Counted from the stretch's first letter, positions 36,976 to 54,920 are shown. The stretch is 59,099 bases of DNA from Leptolyngbyales cyanobacterium (GCA_038208945.1 JBBQYE010000001.1:1-59099), one strand, 5' to 3'. The notes: a model not told the origin generated them from the sequence alone. Program-made: numbers and translations.

Positions 36976-38694
36976 GTGAAGATTGCGATCGCTCAACTCA
37001 ACCCGACGATCGGGGATTTAGACGGAAATGCTCAACGAATCTTAAACGCCGCGCAACGAGCCGCGAGTGAGGGAGTGCGATTGCTGCTTACGCCAGAGTT
37101 GTCGTTGTGCGGATATCCGCCGCGCGATTTGTTGCTCGATCCCAGTTTTGTCGAGATGATGACTCGAACGCTGTTAACGCTGGCTGAAACGTTGCCGACG
37201 GGCGTTGCGGTTTTAGTCGGAACCGTGGAACCGAATCCTCGATCGCACCAAAATGGTGGCAAACCTCTGTTCAATAGCGTTGCTCTCTTAGAACAGGGAA
37301 CCATTCAACAAATCTTTCACAAACGGCTGTTGCCAACCTATGACGTGTTTGATGAAGACCGCTATTTTGAACCTGGAAACGAGTCAAACCAGTTCACCTT
37401 AGAGCATTTGGGGCAGTCGGTTCGGATGGGTGTCACCATTTGCGAAGACCTTTGGAATGATGAAGAGTTTTGGGGTAAACGGACGTATACGCTGAACCCG
37501 ATCGCCGATCTTGCTCAACAAGGTGTTGATTTCACGATTAATCTGTCGGCATCTCCTTATACGGTCGGTAAACAACGGCTGCGAGAAGCGATGCTGCAAC
37601 ATGGAGCCGTCAGATTCGATCAGCCGATCGTTTATGCCAATCAAGTGGGCGGCAATGACGATCTAATTTTTGATGGTAGTAGTGTCGCCGTCGATCGTCA
37701 CGGAAATCTAGTGTGTCGTGCCCGTGCTTTTGATGAAGATTGGGTCGAGATCGACTACAATCCCGACACTCAGGATTTTCTGCCTAGCTCGATCGCGCCT
37801 GCTCCCGACTGTGACGAAGCCGAAATTTGGGCAGCGCTGGTAATGGGCGTGCGGGATTATGCTCGCAAGTGTGGCTTTTCAAAAGTTGTGTTGGGGTTAA
37901 GTGGCGGCATTGATTCGGCTCTAGTTGCTGCGATCGCTGCCTCTGCTCTCGGTGCTGAGAATGTGCTGGGTGTCTTGATGCCTTCGCCCTACAGTTCTGA
38001 TCACTCCGTTGACGATGCGTTAGAACTTGCTAGAAATATTGGGATTAAGACTCAGACATTGGCGATCGCGAATCTCATGCAAAGTTACGACCAAACCCTA
38101 GAAGACTTATTTGCCGGGACAGAGTTTGGCATCGCAGAAGAGAATCTTCAGTCTCGAATTCGGGGCACGTTGTTGATGGCAATCTCCAACAAATTTGGCT
38201 ATTTGCTCGTCTCTACGGGCAACAAATCTGAGATGGCGGTCGGCTACTGCACGCTATACGGCGACATGAACGGAGGACTGGCAGCGATCGCAGATGTCCC
38301 TAAAACCCGCGTCTACTCCATCTGCAAATGGTTGGGTTCTGACATCATTCCTGCCCACATCGTCACCAAAGCACCCAGCGCTGAGTTAAAGCCAGGGCAG
38401 GTGGATCAAGACTCGCTGCCAGCCTACGAGATTTTGGACGACATTCTCGATCGCTTGATTCATCAACACCAGTCCGCTACCGAAATCGTTGCTGCTGGAC
38501 ATGAGCAAGTTATTGTCGATCGCATCATCAAACTCGTAACCATTGCAGAATTCAAGCGTCGCCAAGCGCCACCGGGACTGAAAATCACCGATCGCGCGTT
38601 TGGTACGGGCTGGAGAATGCCGATCGCCACTAAATGGATTTCTCGAACTGCGAGAGCGATCGATCCTGTGAAACAACCCTCTCAGCCTGTTTGA
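36976..38694 (+). CDS. nadE: Glutamine-dependent NAD+ synthetase
   Basis: Nitrilase domain (PE, K, ICED) plus GLSGGIDS, TGNKSE and EFKRRQAPP. Confidence 0.96.
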   Translation: MKIAIAQLNPTIGDLDGNAQRILNAAQRAASEGVRLLLTPELSLCGYPPRDLLLDPSFVEMMTRTLLTLAETLPTGVAVLVGTVEPNPRSHQNGGKPLFNSVALLEQGTIQQIFHKRLLPTYDVFDEDRYFEPGNESNQFTLEHLGQSVRMGVTICEDLWNDEEFWGKRTYTLNPIADLAQQGVDFTINLSASPYTVGKQRLREAMLQHGAVRFDQPIVYANQVGGNDDLIFDGSSVAVDRHGNLVCRARAFDEDWVEIDYNPDTQDFLPSSIAPAPDCDEAEIWAALVMGVRDYARKCGFSKVVLGLSGGIDSALVAAIAASALGAENVLGVLMPSPYSSDHSVDDALELARNIGIKTQTLAIANLMQSYDQTLEDLFAGTEFGIAEENLQSRIRGTLLMAISNKFGYLLVSTGNKSEMAVGYCTLYGDMNGGLAAIADVPKTRVYSICKWLGSDIIPAHIVTKAPSAELKPGQVDQDSLPAYEILDDILDRLIHQHQSATEIVAAGHEQVIVDRIIKLVTIAEFKRRQAPPGLKITDRAFGTGWRMPIATKWISRTARAIDPVKQPSQPV

Positions 38695-38762
38695 CTTGGA
38701 GACTATTCAAGGATTGCTTCACATCCCAAGCGGTAATCGGCGGCTCCCTAAAGCCCGACTTC

Positions 38763-39134
38763 CTAGAGTTGAATGGTGATTTTGTTGTGCAATTCCTCCA
38801 CTCGAATCAGTGAACCGTTACCCAGGACAATGTTGAACTTCACTAGCGATCGTTCAACTTGATATCCCGGCAACACTCGAACAATCTGATACTCCGTCGT
38901 CAAATCACTCGTGCCGTCCCATTTAAGGAATGCCAGTTGATTGGACGCAACCTCACTCAGTTGCGAAACAAAGTCTTCAATCACATCGCTAACATTCGGA
39001 ATAATGCCAGACGATAGGAAGATATAACGCTCTTGCAAATCTAACGTAATGCTAACTCGATAACGTTTTTCGGTTGAGCATCGCAACTCAACCGTGAACG
39101 AAATCGAGCTAGGAATCACAGTCCTAACTCCCAT
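38763..39134 (-). CDS. Hypothetical protein, 123 aa, no recognisable family
   Basis: ATG with a GAGAGG RBS that is embedded in a 13-bp perfect inverted repeat. Confidence 0.65.
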   Translation of the reverse strand: MGVRTVIPSSISFTVELRCSTEKRYRVSITLDLQERYIFLSSGIIPNVSDVIEDFVSQLSEVASNQLAFLKWDGTSDLTTEYQIVRVLPGYQVERSLVKFNIVLGNGSLIRVEELHNKITIQL

Positions 39135-39151
39135 AGTTTTTGTCCTCTCGG

Positions 39152-39271
39152 TTAATTCAAAGAGGACAAAAACACTGATTTCTCAGACGGTCTGTAGGGG
39201 AGAAAAATGGTTGCAGGATCTTGATTCCAGCCTTTCAAGATCCCATAGCAAAGCTGACGGTGTACAATCAT
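39152..39271 (-). CDS. Putative 39-aa leader peptide
   Basis: GGAGG RBS; MIVHRQLCYGILKGWNQDPATIFLPYRPSEKSVFLSSLN; stop codon lies in the loop of the RBS-sequestering hairpin. Confidence 0.45.
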   Translation of the reverse strand: MIVHRQLCYGILKGWNQDPATIFLPYRPSEKSVFLSSLN

Positions 39272-39274
39272 GAA

Positions 39275-39392
39275 CGCCTCCTGAGTTAATGCTAGTAACT
39301 AGGGATGGAAGTCCTCGGAGTCTGATCGGCAAATCAGATTTCGGGGCATAACTTCATCACTGCGATGTATTCTACAAGAGTTTTTGGTTTTT
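39275..39392 (+). ncRNA. Candidate antisense RNA
   Basis: TACAAT -10-like box at 39263-39268; hairpin 39304-39358 whose mismatches are G-U pairs on the plus strand only; T-tracts downstream. Confidence 0.35.
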
Positions 39393-39571
39393 TGGAATGC
39401 TGAATTTTTGAGGCGCGTTGCCTTCGGCTCTTGCAAAGCCGATCGTTGTTTTGGGAAAGTGCGAGGCGATTAGCCGATCGGGGAACTGCGAAGCGATCGT
39501 TTCTCTAGGATCTCTGATGAAAAGTGAAGGCAGATATAAAGTTTCGGGGTATCTGCCCAAATCAGGGCGAT

Positions 39572-39605
39572 ATACGGAAACTTTTCGTATAATCAATAGT
39601 TAGCC
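39572..39605 (+). mobile_element. attI-like integron recombination site
   Basis: GTATAAT-caata-GTTAGCC has the 7-5-7 simple-site spacing and sits at the 5' boundary of the first cassette. Confidence 0.6.
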
Positions 39606-39772
39606 ATCTTCTTCCTCCGGTTAAGGCAGTAGCTTGAAGGTTAACTGTGGGGCATTATCTTCTGTAATGTGTTCAGGATATTCCTGAAATGGGCACTCTA
39701 GTACTGATAGGTATAAGAAGCATTCGGAACCATTATCTAAAAGTTCAATTAAACCGCATAGGAAGAAGTGAA

Positions 39773-42700
39773 ATGGACATCGCTCGACAGCTAGCTGAGA
39801 AATACCCTAATCTTTTTGATCCATTGGTTAATTCATACTGGGAAGCTGAACCAGCTAGTAAAGAGTATCGAAAGCTAAGTAAAGTAATCAAGCAATTACT
39901 CGGTCAAGACGATCATCACGCAGAAATGATACAAATGCGTCTTGGCAACCAAACTTTACAAGCTATTGGTGATCAGTTCAACTTAACCCGTGAACGTGTC
40001 CGTCAAATAATCATTAAGTATGACAGTTATATAACCAATATTGATGTTGGTTCAAAAGAATGGTGTATTAGATTAGTCAACCAGCTACTTAGATCCCAAG
40101 CTGATCCCAAAAAACTTCCCTCAAATGAAGAGTTAGAAAATCTTCATTTGAAGCTCACAGGTGCTCTTAGAGAGCATTTCACATCAGCAAAGAAGTATGG
40201 CAAGCTAAATGAAAAAAATCGGTTAGAGCTTGTCAAATTATTTGAACTTGATGTTGATTCTGAAGTTAAAAATCACCGATCTTGGTCTCTAGAACGATTG
40301 ATTTACGACGTTCGAGAGTTTGCAAAGCAAATTGGTAAGCCTGATTTTATGCCCATGCAGCTAGAAATGGCTGAGTATGGACGAAGTGATTTAAGGGGTG
40401 TGATTCAGCGATTTGGTGGTCAATCCAAAGTTGCAGAACTTTCTGGACTCAGGTATCAAGGGCAAACCGTTGCACCTGACGGTTCACGTACTTATTGGAC
40501 TGAAGAGCGCATTCGGGCTTTTCTTTATGAAGTTGCTGAAAAAGAAGGGCATCCCGGTTATATGCCTACTCAAGCAGACTGCGTCAAATATTCACAGAAG
40601 CAGAACGCAAGCATACTTTCTATTTTTACTCGTGCGTTCACACCAAAAGAACCTACTCTGAGTTGGCTTGATGTCGCTCAAAAATATGGACTTAAATATG
40701 ACTCTGAATACCATAGAGTTACTATTGCCTACATTCGTTCATTTGTTAAGTCATTAGGTGATGCTCTCTATAACCTTACACCTGCTGAAATTTATGTCTT
40801 ATTTGAGCAGCAAGGAATAAACAAAGCTGGTGGAAATACGAATATAAGAACGTTTGATAATCTTGTCCACGCAATTCAAACCGGAAATTTGCCTAGAGAG
40901 GAGATAGAAAAGTGGGCAAACGGCGGCAGCAGTCATATTACACAAGCGCTTCTTGATCCTGAGAACAAAACGGTTGAAGAAGCATTTTCAAAAGCTGATA
41001 ATTTCTTAAATAAGGTTAGCCATAAAAACAAGAAAGACAACCTTAATGATGAGTCTTATAAAGAAGATCTAACTCAAGATTTACCTATAACAAGAGTTTC
41101 AGACACTTTAAGTTCTCTTGCTAAAATTACAGATATCCTAATTGACGGATCTAGCGATGAAGAGGCTATTAAATTCCTGATTTCTAAGGCAATAGCAAAA
41201 CTTTGGAAGCGTTGCTTCTATGAGGAAGAAAAGGCTTTAATAGAAGCGAAGCAGCATAAAGGAAATATTTATAGCGAGGCAGTGCGAGATACTTTCATTG
41301 ATGAATACACACGTTGCAAGCAGTTACCTCTGCCTGAAGGTTACTCGTTTATAGATTTGAGTGGAATCAGGCGTGAGCCTAAACTCATGCAAAGACTAAT
41401 TTCTTACCGTGTCTTGAAAGATGGTCGTGTTCTTAACCTCAGCGGTACTGGTACGGGTAAGACTTTATCAGCAGTTCTTGCGAGTCGTGTGATTGGTTCT
41501 CAACTAACAGTCATCGCTTGTCCTAACGCTACAATTGATGGCTGGGCTACAACGATTAGAAGTGCTTTCGCAAAGTCCGAAATTGCTTCAAAAAGTTGGA
41601 CTCCTATTTGGTCAACTGAAGGATTACCGCGTTATTTACTGATAAATCATGAGATGTTTCAGAATCGCTTTGAAGGTTTAATTAAGCGATTTATTAACAA
41701 CAATGCTATAGATTTTGTTGTTATAGATGAATTACATCAGGTAAAACAAAGGGATGAAGATCTTGAAACTCAGCGTCGTAGATTGATAAATGGTTTAATT
41801 ACCGATGTTCCAGAGGATAGACCAAAACCTCGTGTACTAGGAATGTCTGCGACACCAGTTGTTAACAATCTGTATGAAGGTAAATCTTTAGTTGAGTTGG
41901 TAAGTAGTCTGCGTCATGATGATATTGGTACGGCAACAAATATTCATAATTGCATGAAGCTCTATCAGAAGTTCACTACAATGGGCTTCCGAATGGTGCC
42001 TCAAAATCAAATTTCTCGCACCCCACAAATTCATCCGGTTGACTGTACTCCCTATCTCGAAGATTTATTTGCGCTAGGACACCATCCCCATCCTCAGCAA
42101 GTAGAAGCAATCCTAGTTCGCGCTCGTTGGTCTATCATTCGACAGCATCTTCGGACAAAAACAGTCATTTTTACTGAGTATGTAAAAGATATTGTCCCGT
42201 ACCTGGTTCAGCAGATCAAGCAAGCAGGAATGTCTGTTGGTGTCTATACAGGTAACGACAAATATGCCACGGAAGCAGGCTATAAGGATATGCTGGAGCA
42301 GTTTCTGAAAGGCGATGTTGAGATTTTAGTGGCATCAATTAAGTGTCTTGGTACTGGTGTCGATGGGCTTCAGCTTGTTTCTAATAATATAATTTTTGCT
42401 ACTTTGCCCTGGACTAGCACTGACTATGAGCAGGCAATCGGTCGTTTTGATCGCGAAGGGTTTGTGTTCGATAAGCTTGATATCCATATTCCTAAAACTT
42501 ATGCGATTCTAAGTGATGGTAAGGAATGGAGTTGGTGCGAGTCTAAACTACTCCGGCTTGAAAATAAGCGAGATATTGCAAAAGCGGCCGTCGATGGAGA
42601 AATACCCGATAGTAATAGCCAGTTGACCCCAGCAAAAGCTACTCAATATTTGTTGGGATGGCTGAGAAGGTTAAGTGAAGAAGGGCTGAATGAAATTGAA

Positions 42701-43363
42701 CGCAAACAAATTCGAGTTCCTCTAGATGAAGCAAGCGATGCTGAAGTTTCTCACCGCTATGCATCTTACGGTGATTTTGCAACACTGAATGCTCGTTGGA
42801 ATAACTCTCATTCTAGTGTTACTTATGAACGGCTTAGTAAAAACTCAGAAGAATGGTGTTATTACCACACTCGAATGGATGAACTTGAGGCTTCTTGGCA
42901 AGTAGTTCCGCGTGAACAGTGTGTTCAACATCTCACGGAAAATTTACCTTCAGGTTCCGTTATTGGAGACTTTGGCTGTGGTCAAGCAAAATTAGCTGAA
43001 GCCTTGAGGGAGGTTCACACTGTTCACTCCTTTGATCATGTTGCAATAACTCGAAGCGTAGTTGCCAGTGATATGGCTAATACGCCCCTAGATGATGCAA
43101 CACTAGATGCTGCTGTCTTCAGCCTCTCTTTAATGGGAGCCAACATCAAAGACTATATTGCAGAAGCATACCGTACCCTAAAGCCTGGTGGTCAATTGCT
43201 CATCTATCATCCCGCTAAACATCATGACAGGCTTAAATTTGTCGAAGGATTAAACCATTTAGGTTTGGCTATAGTTCAGCATGACGAAATCTACAAGTGG
43301 CATTATATTTGGGCAATTAAACAAGGTCGTCAAGAGAATCCATCTGCTGATGTGAGTTTTTAA
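39773..43363 (+). CDS. Sigma70-r4-like HTH + helical repeats + SF2 helicase + Rrp8-like SAM methyltransferase fusion
   Basis: TLQAIGDQFNLTRERVRQI; GTGTGKT, IDELHQ, GMSATP, TGVDG, QAIGRFDR; IGDFGCGQAKLA, AVFSLSLMG, RTLKPGG. The ORF opens at 39689 but ATG 39773 has the better RBS. Confidence 0.88.
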   Translation: MDIARQLAEKYPNLFDPLVNSYWEAEPASKEYRKLSKVIKQLLGQDDHHAEMIQMRLGNQTLQAIGDQFNLTRERVRQIIIKYDSYITNIDVGSKEWCIRLVNQLLRSQADPKKLPSNEELENLHLKLTGALREHFTSAKKYGKLNEKNRLELVKLFELDVDSEVKNHRSWSLERLIYDVREFAKQIGKPDFMPMQLEMAEYGRSDLRGVIQRFGGQSKVAELSGLRYQGQTVAPDGSRTYWTEERIRAFLYEVAEKEGHPGYMPTQADCVKYSQKQNASILSIFTRAFTPKEPTLSWLDVAQKYGLKYDSEYHRVTIAYIRSFVKSLGDALYNLTPAEIYVLFEQQGINKAGGNTNIRTFDNLVHAIQTGNLPREEIEKWANGGSSHITQALLDPENKTVEEAFSKADNFLNKVSHKNKKDNLNDESYKEDLTQDLPITRVSDTLSSLAKITDILIDGSSDEEAIKFLISKAIAKLWKRCFYEEEKALIEAKQHKGNIYSEAVRDTFIDEYTRCKQLPLPEGYSFIDLSGIRREPKLMQRLISYRVLKDGRVLNLSGTGTGKTLSAVLASRVIGSQLTVIACPNATIDGWATTIRSAFAKSEIASKSWTPIWSTEGLPRYLLINHEMFQNRFEGLIKRFINNNAIDFVVIDELHQVKQRDEDLETQRRRLINGLITDVPEDRPKPRVLGMSATPVVNNLYEGKSLVELVSSLRHDDIGTATNIHNCMKLYQKFTTMGFRMVPQNQISRTPQIHPVDCTPYLEDLFALGHHPHPQQVEAILVRARWSIIRQHLRTKTVIFTEYVKDIVPYLVQQIKQAGMSVGVYTGNDKYATEAGYKDMLEQFLKGDVEILVASIKCLGTGVDGLQLVSNNIIFATLPWTSTDYEQAIGRFDREGFVFDKLDIHIPKTYAILSDGKEWSWCESKLLRLENKRDIAKAAVDGEIPDSNSQLTPAKATQYLLGWLRRLSEEGLNEIERKQIRVPLDEASDAEVSHRYASYGDFATLNARWNNSHSSVTYERLSKNSEEWCYYHTRMDELEASWQVVPREQCVQHLTENLPSGSVIGDFGCGQAKLAEALREVHTVHSFDHVAITRSVVASDMANTPLDDATLDAAVFSLSLMGANIKDYIAEAYRTLKPGGQLLIYHPAKHHDRLKFVEGLNHLGLAIVQHDEIYKWHYIWAIKQGRQENPSADVSF

Positions 43364-43399
43364 CCATAAGCGAGTAGTTTGCGCTAGAGTACGCCAGAT

Positions 43400-43485
43400 G
43401 GCTAACACTGCGTTGGTGCGGACGGAACGAAGGCTATCTGTGGGAGTTCAAGGTTGTCTGCCGCCGCACAACTTCACCGTTGGGT
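43400..43485 (+). mobile_element. attC site 1 (86 bp)
   Basis: R'' GGCTAAC, 5-nt spacer, L'' GTTGGTGC ... L' GCACAAC, 6-nt spacer, R' GTTGGGT; two extrahelical bases at the expected positions. Confidence 0.85.
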
Positions 43486-43595
43486 TGCCTCTATCAAAGG
43501 GCGCAAAGTGTTGGTGTTTCCTAGCTGTTTGCGTTTTTTCGATCGCGACCTCCCGATCGTTCATCAAACTTTGGATTTGATCAAAATCAGGTGAG
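43479..43595 (+). repeat. 117-bp direct repeat, copy 1
   Basis: Near-identical to 44984-45100. Confidence 0.93.
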
Positions 43596-43735
43596 TGCGA
43601 TCGCCGATCTTGTAGGTTGGATTGACCCAGAAAACCAAACCACTTCTCGTTTGCTCCCCATCATTGCTTCGATAACTGCCCACTACATTGCTCAGGTTAA
43701 AATGTAGGGGCTAAAGTTGAAACGAGGTCAAACTC

Positions 43736-44008
43736 ATGACAGTTCGACAGCCCCGCTACAGCAAAGAAGAATTCGCTCGACGGGGTGATGAGATTTATGA
43801 ATCTCAGGTGCGTTCCCAAGTCGAAGAAAGCAATTATGGCAAGATTGTGGAGATCGACATTGAGACAGGCGCTTTTGAGGTAGCTGATACGCCTATGGTC
43901 GCAGTCGATCGACTTTATGAACGTGAACCCGATGCTCAACCCTGGGTGATTCGGATTGGACATCGCGCCTTTTACCACTTCGGTTCGTGGAGTCTGAAGC
44001 AGAATTAA
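43736..44008 (+). CDS. Small conserved protein (DUF5678-like; usually partnered with a clan AA aspartyl protease)
   Basis: GAGG RBS; EEFARRGDEIYE...GKIV.IDIETG.FEV. Confidence 0.8.
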   Translation: MTVRQPRYSKEEFARRGDEIYESQVRSQVEESNYGKIVEIDIETGAFEVADTPMVAVDRLYEREPDAQPWVIRIGHRAFYHFGSWSLKQN

Positions 44009-44023
44009 GGAATCGGTGGGGCA

Positions 44024-44050
44024 TGGTCTAATCAATGGTTAGAACCGCGA
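44024..44050 (+). mobile_element. Collapsed/degenerate attC remnant
   Basis: GGTCTAAT-caatg-GTTTAGAACCG shortly after a stop codon; the first part equals the R'' of the attC at 44904. Confidence 0.45.
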
Positions 44051-44224
44051 TGAGAGTCCTAGCACTTCGATCTCTTAGAGTAAAATCGCTGCTACAGGGA
44101 TTAGAAGTTCCTGAACTAACCCATTAGGCTAATTGGTAGAATAAGTGGACGCTAGCGGTCGCCCCCATGCGACAAGCCAGCATCCGCAGCCTTTTCACCT
44201 AATCTCGGAAAAGGAGATTCTCAG

Positions 44225-44443
44225 ATGCCATTAGCTGAACTCATGTCACAAATCCAGAATCTTCCAAAAATTGACAAGCTTCGGCTGATGCAGTTCCTTG
44301 CAACAGAACTGGTCAAAGAAGAAGATGCAAACTTCTTTGTTGCCAACCAAGAATATCCTGTCTGGTCGCCCTACAATTGCTCTGAGGCTGCCAATGTTCT
44401 AATGAATCTTCTGGATACAAAGCGACAAGAGCAGAATGGTTGA
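44225..44443 (+). CDS. Small antitoxin-like hypothetical protein
   Basis: AGGAGA RBS; 72 aa (DKLRLMQFL..EL, YPVWSPY); stop overlaps the next start. Confidence 0.8.
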   Translation: MPLAELMSQIQNLPKIDKLRLMQFLATELVKEEDANFFVANQEYPVWSPYNCSEAANVLMNLLDTKRQEQNG

Positions 44444-44855
44444 CACTCGAATATTTCCCTACAAAATCATTGACAGAAGTCTTGGCATGGTCGATCGAAT
44501 GCCTTATCTGCCTTTGACACTCAGTCTTAATGGTCAATTCCTGAACGCTGAAGGCTTATTAGATACAGGCGCAAGCGTCAACGTTTTGCCCTATGAGTTG
44601 GGGCTACAACTGGGTTTAATCTGGGAGGATGAGACGCTTTCGGTTCTATTGGCAGGAAACTTGGCTCGATTTGAAGCTCGCGCAGTCATTGTTGATGCTC
44701 AAATTAGTTCATTCCCAACGGTTAACCTAGCATTTGCCTGGACACAAGCGGTCGATGTGCCGATGATCTTGGGGCAAGCCAATTTCTTCTTTGAGTTTGA
44801 TGTCTGTTTCTTTCGTGCGCGTTCTGAATTTGAAGTCTGCCCTAAAGCAGGTTGA
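44436..44855 (+). CDS. Retropepsin-like (clan AA) aspartyl protease
   Basis: LLDTGAS catalytic motif and ILGQ..FF motif. Confidence 0.85.
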   Translation: MVDTRIFPYKIIDRSLGMVDRMPYLPLTLSLNGQFLNAEGLLDTGASVNVLPYELGLQLGLIWEDETLSVLLAGNLARFEARAVIVDAQISSFPTVNLAFAWTQAVDVPMILGQANFFFEFDVCFFRARSEFEVCPKAG

Positions 44856-44903
44856 ATAGAAATAAAGGCAAGAAGGTCAGTTGGACGCGCTCGGTGAGGC
44901 ACG

Positions 44904-44990
44904 GTCTAATAATTCAAATGCAGCGGACGCATGAGAGCCGCTAGTGCTGAGTCTGAGTTTGTCTGCTGCCGCTGATTTGAGCCGTTGGGC
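44904..44990 (+). mobile_element. attC site 2 (87 bp; R'' ends in AAT instead of AAC)
   Basis: R'' GTCTAAT, 5-nt spacer, L'' AAATGCAG ... L' CTGATTT, 5-nt spacer, R' GTTGGGC. Confidence 0.8.
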
Positions 44991-45100
44991 TGCATCTCGC
45001 AAGGGGCGCACAGTGTTGGTGTTTCCTAGCTGTTTGCGTTTTTTCGATCGCAGCCTCCCGATCGTTCATCAAACTTTGAATCTGATCAAAATCAGGTGAG
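44984..45100 (+). repeat. 117-bp direct repeat, copy 2
   Basis: Near-identical to 43479-43595. Confidence 0.93.
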
Positions 45101-51537: not shown

Positions 51538-51690
51538 AGACAGATTTGCAGAACTGAGCAAGGAGGCGCAACTAAAGTCAACTTGTTTGGGTCGGTTTTG
51601 GCTTCGCTCAACCCGCTAGGAGTGCTGGCTTTCAGAGTTGAGCAGAGCCGAAACGCGTCTTACCGTTCACTAAACTTCTTGCAGAGGTCT
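51538..51690 (-). repeat. Dispersed repeat / MITE-like family, copy 2
   Basis: Reverse complement matches 3172-3280; imperfect terminal inverted repeats AGAC...TGCA.GAA. Confidence 0.8.
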
Positions 51691-54819: not shown

Positions 54820-54920
54820 GATGGTAAGACGCGTTTCGGCTCCGCTCAAAACCAGAATCTCCAGCGAGCTGAACGAAGTCGAAACCCACAAACTAACTTT
54901 AACTGAGCCTGCCTACTTAA
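54820..54920 (+). repeat. Dispersed repeat family, copy 3 (diverged)
   Basis: GGTAAGACGCGTTTCGGCTCCGCTCAA...TGAACGAAGTCGAAACCC matches copies 1 and 2. Confidence 0.75.

Follow-up and report, generated by a model that had tools for sequence, protein, structure and literature searches.

How did a gene of 3.9 kb come to stand directly behind an integron attachment site (attI) that has no integrase gene (intI) beside it? The question is raised by the nadE-sir locus in a stretch of 59,099 nucleotides from a Leptolyngbyales cyanobacterium (GCA_038208945.1, JBBQYE010000001.1:1-59099), here called the window. A preliminary description, made from the sequence alone, proposed that the whole helicase-methyltransferase gene was integrated there as one unusually large gene cassette. 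We find it very likely that this gene, 3,880 bp, is a single cassette at a genuine attI without an intI of its own, most likely brought in by ordinary recombination between its attC site and attI, and probably by an integrase from another locus. The features that carry the argument are these:

39507-39601, plus strand: attI, type A, identified by alignment with an attI of genome G007 (L060) that has an intact intI next to it
39600-43479, plus strand: gene cassette 1, 3,880 bp, heading the array; delimited by end complementarity, by ends shared with loci L062 and L063, and by GC content
39773-43363, plus strand: cargo gene, 1,196 aa, with a sigma70-r4-like helix-turn-helix (HTH), helical repeats, a superfamily 2 (SF2, SNF2-like) ATPase and a C-terminal Methyltransf_8 domain
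43400-43485, plus strand: attC1, crossover G|TT at 43479/43480; the same attC is found in L063

The cassette and its ends

As had been described, the 11 bases at 39599-39609 reappear at 43396-43406 as their exact reverse complement, and the pairing ends there on both sides. The 11-mer occurs at these two sites only, both in the window and in the 3.0-Mb assembly, and two matches were found in none of 100 shuffles of the window. Between the R'' of attC1 and the 5' end of the cassette itself 11 bases pair, as compared to 3 between R'' and the R' that is attached at present, in agreement with the poorer pairing noted earlier for that R'. Folding of the bottom strand at the predicted circle junction, the check that had been proposed, gave -22.1 kcal/mol for the excised circle as compared to -11.7 kcal/mol for attC1 as integrated.

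The anatomy of attC1 is that of an integron cassette, with R'', L'', L' and R' boxes and extrahelical bases. R'' is GGCTAAC, the L arm has two unpaired bases, and the crossover G is 43479. The first unpaired base is a C on the bottom strand, and all 11 of the sites aligned share its top-strand G. The cassette starts at G|TT, and circularisation completes the attC. A scan with an attC model found two full attC sites in the window and none further inside the cassette 1 gene; the match of this RNA model to attC1 itself holds by construction, since attC1 belonged to its training set. The GC content of the cassette, 0.375-0.435, is lower than that of the flanking nadE and sir, 0.49-0.52. The extent first given to the cassette, 39599-43485, was right at the 5' boundary but not at the 3' end, the cassette stopping at 43479 and the bases 43480-43485 belonging to the next one.

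Complementary ends are the rule among cassettes and hence unremarkable. At congeneric loci 14 of 29 other attC-to-attC intervals have end complementarity of at least 7 bases and 2 of 29 of at least 11, where a missed attC could make one interval of two cassettes. These intervals in the genus measure 585-2,735 bp (n=29), and cassette 1 with its 3,880 bp is the largest. "Unusually large" is therefore correct within the genus, yet a cassette of this size, at the upper end of the range, has precedent.

Relatives of the cargo gene were examined at nine metagenome loci and five GTDB loci; with the query used the gene was not found in any of the seven congeneric genomes. L063 (87% identity) shares the GTT at which the cassette begins, but stands behind another attI, beside a remnant of the intI start; its 3' end is again the same GTT (43479-81), followed by unrelated DNA. 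L062 (92% identity) also begins at this GTT, there behind an attC, but gene and contig end early, so that it shows the 5' end only and L063 is the complete copy of the two. The two are independent contigs with unrelated flanks. A unit with the same ends is thus present at other att sites, which implies that one lineage of the gene became a cassette and moved, and which bears out the proposal that the helicase-methyltransferase gene is one cassette.

The landing site

The landing site is a genuine attI. The type-A layout consists of two dyad units of ~40 bp, the first of them 4 bases short, an L box at 39587-39593, a 5-bp spacer and G|TT at 39599/39600. The 48 bases ending in GTT reach a score of 42 of 48 against the G007 (L060) attI, where the shuffled maximum was 8, and the homology extends back to ~39507, ~95 bp upstream of the GTT. 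In congeners, long BLAST matches (n=7) stop at window positions 39601-39605. There are 19 other copies of the type-A attI in seven of seven congeners, found with a search pattern that itself demanded TT, and the 18 informative ones run into 12 different sequences. Homologous sequence running past the boundaries in related genomes had been named as what would speak against the cassette; instead, the attI copies stop at the GTT, and the cassette copies start there behind unrelated sites.

Fully empty platforms were observed as well. Two attI copies of genome G003 run straight into the sequence found behind the last attC of the window, and contigs from two sequencing runs join 39591 to 44985, at this or another locus. 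As to a cassette promoter (Pc), a scan of 38690-39800 for the sigma-70 consensus found no promoter, and a TATAAT hexamer overlaps the attI L box. The first position of the cassette in the array, as described, is correct; that it is also the most recent one had been read from its position, at a locus with no intI, and may or may not hold.

Other elements were also seen at the first position behind attI. In L058, L126, L127 and L130 this element opens with an att core of 7 bases and then GTGCG, as would a group II intron that had inserted at attI. At many attI of different types the first element is a conserved mini-cassette of ~65 bp without an open reading frame (ORF), which has an inverted repeat inside it and a long attC (L001:2190-2372, L009, L020, L057, L060, L079, L084, L110, L115), possibly a promoter or RNA cassette.

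The platform module

Upstream of attI the following features were observed:

38763-39134, minus strand: ORF123, a conserved orphan protein of 123 aa, multicopy in the genus
39135-39412, minus strand: ORF123 leader, near-invariant, with predicted stem-loops and two hypervariable loops of 6-7 nt
39413-39506, no strand assigned: linker, G-rich with HIP1-like words; other platform copies hold intI here

ORF123 and its leader, both on the minus strand, form a module of 690 bp (38725-39412) with 4-21 matches per genome in eight of eight genomes of the genus. There were no matches in 33 other genomes and none in 400 sampled from the rest of the cyanobacteria; 82 further genomes of the family gave one match. 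The named homologues of ORF123 are Phormidesmis proteins. The only copy outside the genus, L145 (G495:C451), adjoins the 3' end of an intI and is a case of either horizontal transfer or mis-binning.

Of the 101 matches to the module, 61 distinct and near-full copies were looked at (loci L042-L140). In 43 of the 61 an attI follows that belongs to one of seven types, and five of these have a full intI and one a fragment. That so few intI are found among so many attI-linked copies suggests that the integron is dispersed and is served in trans. Platforms at the nadE locus are of type A in the window, of type B with intI in G005, of type F in G007 and of type A in G002. In the module tree, though, the copy of the window is sister to that of G005 (support 0.94), and all 17 copies of G007 form one clade (0.997) with the attI types mixed. 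It follows that platforms have been exchanged behind the module, and that copies expand or become homogenised within genomes. Whether the multicopy module serves as shared homology for copying and swapping attI platforms between loci is about an even call.

The leader is more conserved than ORF123 itself, the two loops excepted. For loop 1 there are 41 sequence variants among 49 copies, with a pairwise identity of 0.36 as compared to 0.67 at fourfold-degenerate sites. A predicted hairpin covers the ribosome-binding site, and 39369-39374 is a -10-like hexamer. The leader folds well (z -3.06), but a two-sided change was seen in one of 73 predicted pairs (14 copies), which gives the structure no support from covariation, because the sequence barely varies. 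In Rfam the leader matched no family at gathering score (best matches E 2.8 and 2.9). As for the loops being target guides, this is argued against by the variation of loop 1 among orthologous copies at one nadE site. The end positions of loop 1 are seemingly never complementary, as judged by eye.

ORF123 matched nothing in Pfam, NCBIfam or PADLOC, had no usable Atlas match, and was absent from viral contigs. Among 1.84 billion representatives it had 14 matches, two long ones of which look spurious, and its structure model (predicted local distance difference test, pLDDT, 37) is unusable. Many module copies start at a GTT-led hairpin, so that insertion by IntI is conceivable. No description of the module, and nothing on integrons in Phormidesmis or on attI in trans, was found in the literature searched, which largely left subscription papers uncovered.

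How the cassette arrived

The window holds no intI, and the assembly, which is 65% complete, has only a stop-broken fragment on contig C85 and no intact intI. Each congener has 0-2 full-length matches to intI. From established integron biochemistry, the cassette would have been excised as a circle, restoring its fully paired attC, and the circle would then have been integrated at G|TT 39599/39600. At the nadE-sir locus of G005 an intact intI is found at the position of the linker. A linker similar to that of the window, without intI, is present at five loci (the window, G002:C65, G005:C2, G004:C5, G005:C13) with five different first cassettes, and the left flanks of the linker-bearing loci are mostly unrelated. 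Since this linker recurs at several unrelated loci, each with a different first cassette, it is fairly likely that the cassette was loaded in trans after the loss of intI. The recurrence favours trans loading over fossil arrays but is no proof of it.

The C85 fragment (G000:C85, L001:1500-2000) is the 5' half of an intI, and G004 and G005 instead have the module and a type-A attI at the same locus. Upstream of the fragment is a motif that resembles a LexA box.

The alternative that survives best is a fossil integron, in which the cassette came in while intI was adjacent, intI was later deleted and the array is now inert, the other first cassettes being explained by homologous exchange or independent deletions. 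We regard this as unlikely, although several observations speak for it: the intact intI at the orthologous G005 locus, the different deletion endpoints of the type-A copies, the truncated attC after cassette 2, and the poor recombination of long cassettes, recombination being lower the longer the cassette (10.1101/2024.07.02.601686; this and the other papers cited were available in part, and statements on them refer to that part). However, the G005 integrase stands beside an attI of type B, so the window is no simple deletion of the G005 form, and loss of a G005-type intI is ruled out in that simple version. The five first cassettes behind similar linkers also argue against an inert array, and so does the intact state of attI, attC1 and the cargo gene in the window. 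A fossil array would affect the timing alone; the identity of the cassette is unaffected.

[quoted passage not shown] That the complementary ends are due to chance or to another mobile element, and that the gene is not one cassette, has hardly any probability left: ten distant loci (five metagenome and five GTDB, 57-73% identity) lack matching ends, with nothing convincing in an attC-model scan of eight of them (best E 0.76), and the family appears to travel by other routes too, with homologues beside tniQ and between glmS and cas8, but for this lineage L062 and L063 refute it with their shared 5' end, the 3' end shared by one, and their unrelated flanks, and there is no extra attC inside the gene.

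Several results weigh against a cassette loaded in trans onto a mobile platform, or against parts of this reading. Neither the circle junction nor the empty version of the exact window locus was present among the joints listed from four runs; of the empty site foreseen in the preliminary description, the exact form was thus not found, while a fully empty one, in which attI runs directly into what lies behind the last attC, exists at other loci. As the assembly is 65% complete, an intI may lie outside it. The matches to L064 and L065 (86-88% identity) stop at 43390 with no attC match, so the cargo gene apparently occurs also without intact cassette ends. For a Vibrio cholerae cassette whose attC sites are separated by 4 kb, a capture library yielded 0 reads, according to the available text of 10.64898/2026.03.17.712381. 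Among the 61 module copies 18 have no recognisable attI (one of them with too little sequence), and two of the seven attI type references were cut from copies without intI. No clean pre-insertion site or target duplication of the module was found in 13 flank comparisons with G000, one partial-deletion case and six flank searches. Finally, no PADLOC or NCBIfam defence model matched the cargo over its whole length; there were short helicase-domain matches only, and the NCBIfam scores were far under the curated cut-offs.

It is conceivable, though rather improbable as a whole, that the genus has a dispersed integron in which ORF123 and its leader are a selfish or addiction module. This module would spread copies of attI platforms, which belong to several integrase lineages, over 10-20 chromosomal sites and shed intI, one or two integrases would load all of them in trans, and the hypervariable loops would give each platform its regulatory identity. 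Cassettes as large as the 3.9-kb SF2-ATPase/Rrp8-like enzyme, possibly a new anti-phage RNA-modifying system, would then circulate among the platforms.

The cargo protein

The longest ORF of the cargo gene starts at 39689, but the start is placed at 39773 because of the AGGAAG at 39760-39765 and the lengths of the homologues, 1,193-1,197 aa. Pfam domains are a sigma70-r4-like HTH, DEAD/Helicase_C and Methyltransf_8 (E 7.5e-34). The structure model (pLDDT 79.6) resembles SNF2-family ATPases and nucleomethylin (NML), and the only solved sequence match is nucleomethylin, PDB 2zfu (phmmer E 1.6e-27, C-terminal part). The C-terminal fold has a TM-score of 0.86 on this target with a root mean square deviation of 2.3 A. 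By domain sequence as well as predicted fold it belongs to Methyltransf_8 (Rrp8/NML), with the difference that the protein of the window is bacterial and that the domain is placed behind an SF2 ATPase and HTH repeats.

Homologues are found in cyanobacteria, Acidobacteriota and proteobacteria (1,181 matches at E <=0.001), and ~100 of 120 among the matches listed have both the ATPase and the methyltransferase domain. Their neighbours (40 ORFs, 11 loci) include tniQ, cas8 beside glmS, PIN, WYL and TIR, plus housekeeping genes, a picture of patchy mobile cargo that is weakly consistent with a role in conflict. Distant homologues (L005:3881-11367, L068:7846-8499) sit between glmS and cas8, and beside tniQ, contexts that suggest Tn7-like carriage.

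Rrp8 and NML make 1-methyladenosine (m1A) in rRNA. We tentatively propose, at a little under even chances, that the cargo works as a DNA-tracking ATPase by which an RNA methyltransferase of the m1A type is triggered, with a role in conflict or against phages; a defence role as such is a guess. No description of a Methyltransf_8-helicase or bacterial Rrp8 fusion was found in the literature searched, with the same coverage as for the module.

Comparison with known integrons

Taken alone the cassette is textbook integron biology, and the platform matters more. As in the available descriptions of integron cassettes (PMC5027507, PMC8618304), there is one ORF with an attC, a GTT crossover, R''/R' complementarity restored in the circle, unpaired L-arm bases and a first position behind attI. 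Cassette 1 differs in its 3,880 bp and in the first unpaired bottom-strand base, a C where these sources have "usually a G". Of a complete integron the locus has the attI but no intI adjacent to it. With CALINs, as far as the available part of PMC4889954 describes them, it shares two intact attC, no intI nearby and no pseudogene at the locus, but an intact, typed attI heads the array, and the intI-less platform is a multicopy unit.

According to the same source, attI is unknown in the majority of integrons and was not searchable in the CALIN survey. CALINs "can be mobilized in trans" (10.1101/2025.06.18.660453, available text), and CALINs, their possible origins and their mobilisation in trans are already published (PMC4889954, PMC8618304, 10.1101/2025.06.18.660453). 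With sedentary chromosomal integrons carrying defence cassettes (10.1101/2024.07.02.601686, available part) the window shares a chromosomal array, a conserved nadE-sir locus, variable content and a PADLOC candidate pair in cassette 3. The defence genes are there reported to be shorter than average, as compared to a cargo of 1,196 aa in the window, and the genus has short arrays over many loci instead of one.

What the locus adds is natural evidence for a cassette of ~3.9 kb changing its position, as compared to the 4-kb cassette not recovered in the laboratory screen (10.64898/2026.03.17.712381, available text). Although attI is rarely identifiable, there are several types here whose extent is defined to the base, mostly without intI, and an attI stands behind 43 of the 61 copies of a genus-specific module. 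The origin of CALINs and their possible service in trans become directly testable in one genus. The cargo, moreover, is an uncharacterised protein, widespread in bacteria, that joins an SF2 ATPase to a methyltransferase, the sole solved relative found for the latter being human nucleomethylin.

The rest of the array

Behind attC1 the array continues as follows:

43480-44038, plus strand: cassette 2, with a 90-aa ORF at 43736-44008; a truncated attC at 44025-44040 closes it
44039-44984, plus strand: remnant of cassette 3, with the PADLOC candidate pair PDC-M52A/B; attC2 (44904-44990) closes it, and the 5' boundary is putative
44984-45100, plus strand: post-attC sequence, 116 bp behind the last attC, repeated at 43479-43595

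The 1.5 kb between attC1 and attC2 are two fused cassettes. Genome G001 holds both parts in separate cassettes, the homologue of cassette 2 being a separate attC-ended cassette in L051, and the junction of cassettes 2 and 3 is also present in an independent contig. At this junction, 44025-44040, the attC is reduced to R'', five bases and GTT, an arrangement of R'', spacer and GTT that is similar to the attI simple site. Presumably it is an attI*-like fusion as in Tn1331. The 116-bp sequence trails the last attC or an empty attI directly at several loci and also opens cassette 2, which hints at a way for a flank to become the leader of a cassette.

Further downstream in the window, a 27-nt inverted repeat (51638-51664 and 54823-54849, 96% complementary) surrounds 3.2 kb with ABC-transporter genes.

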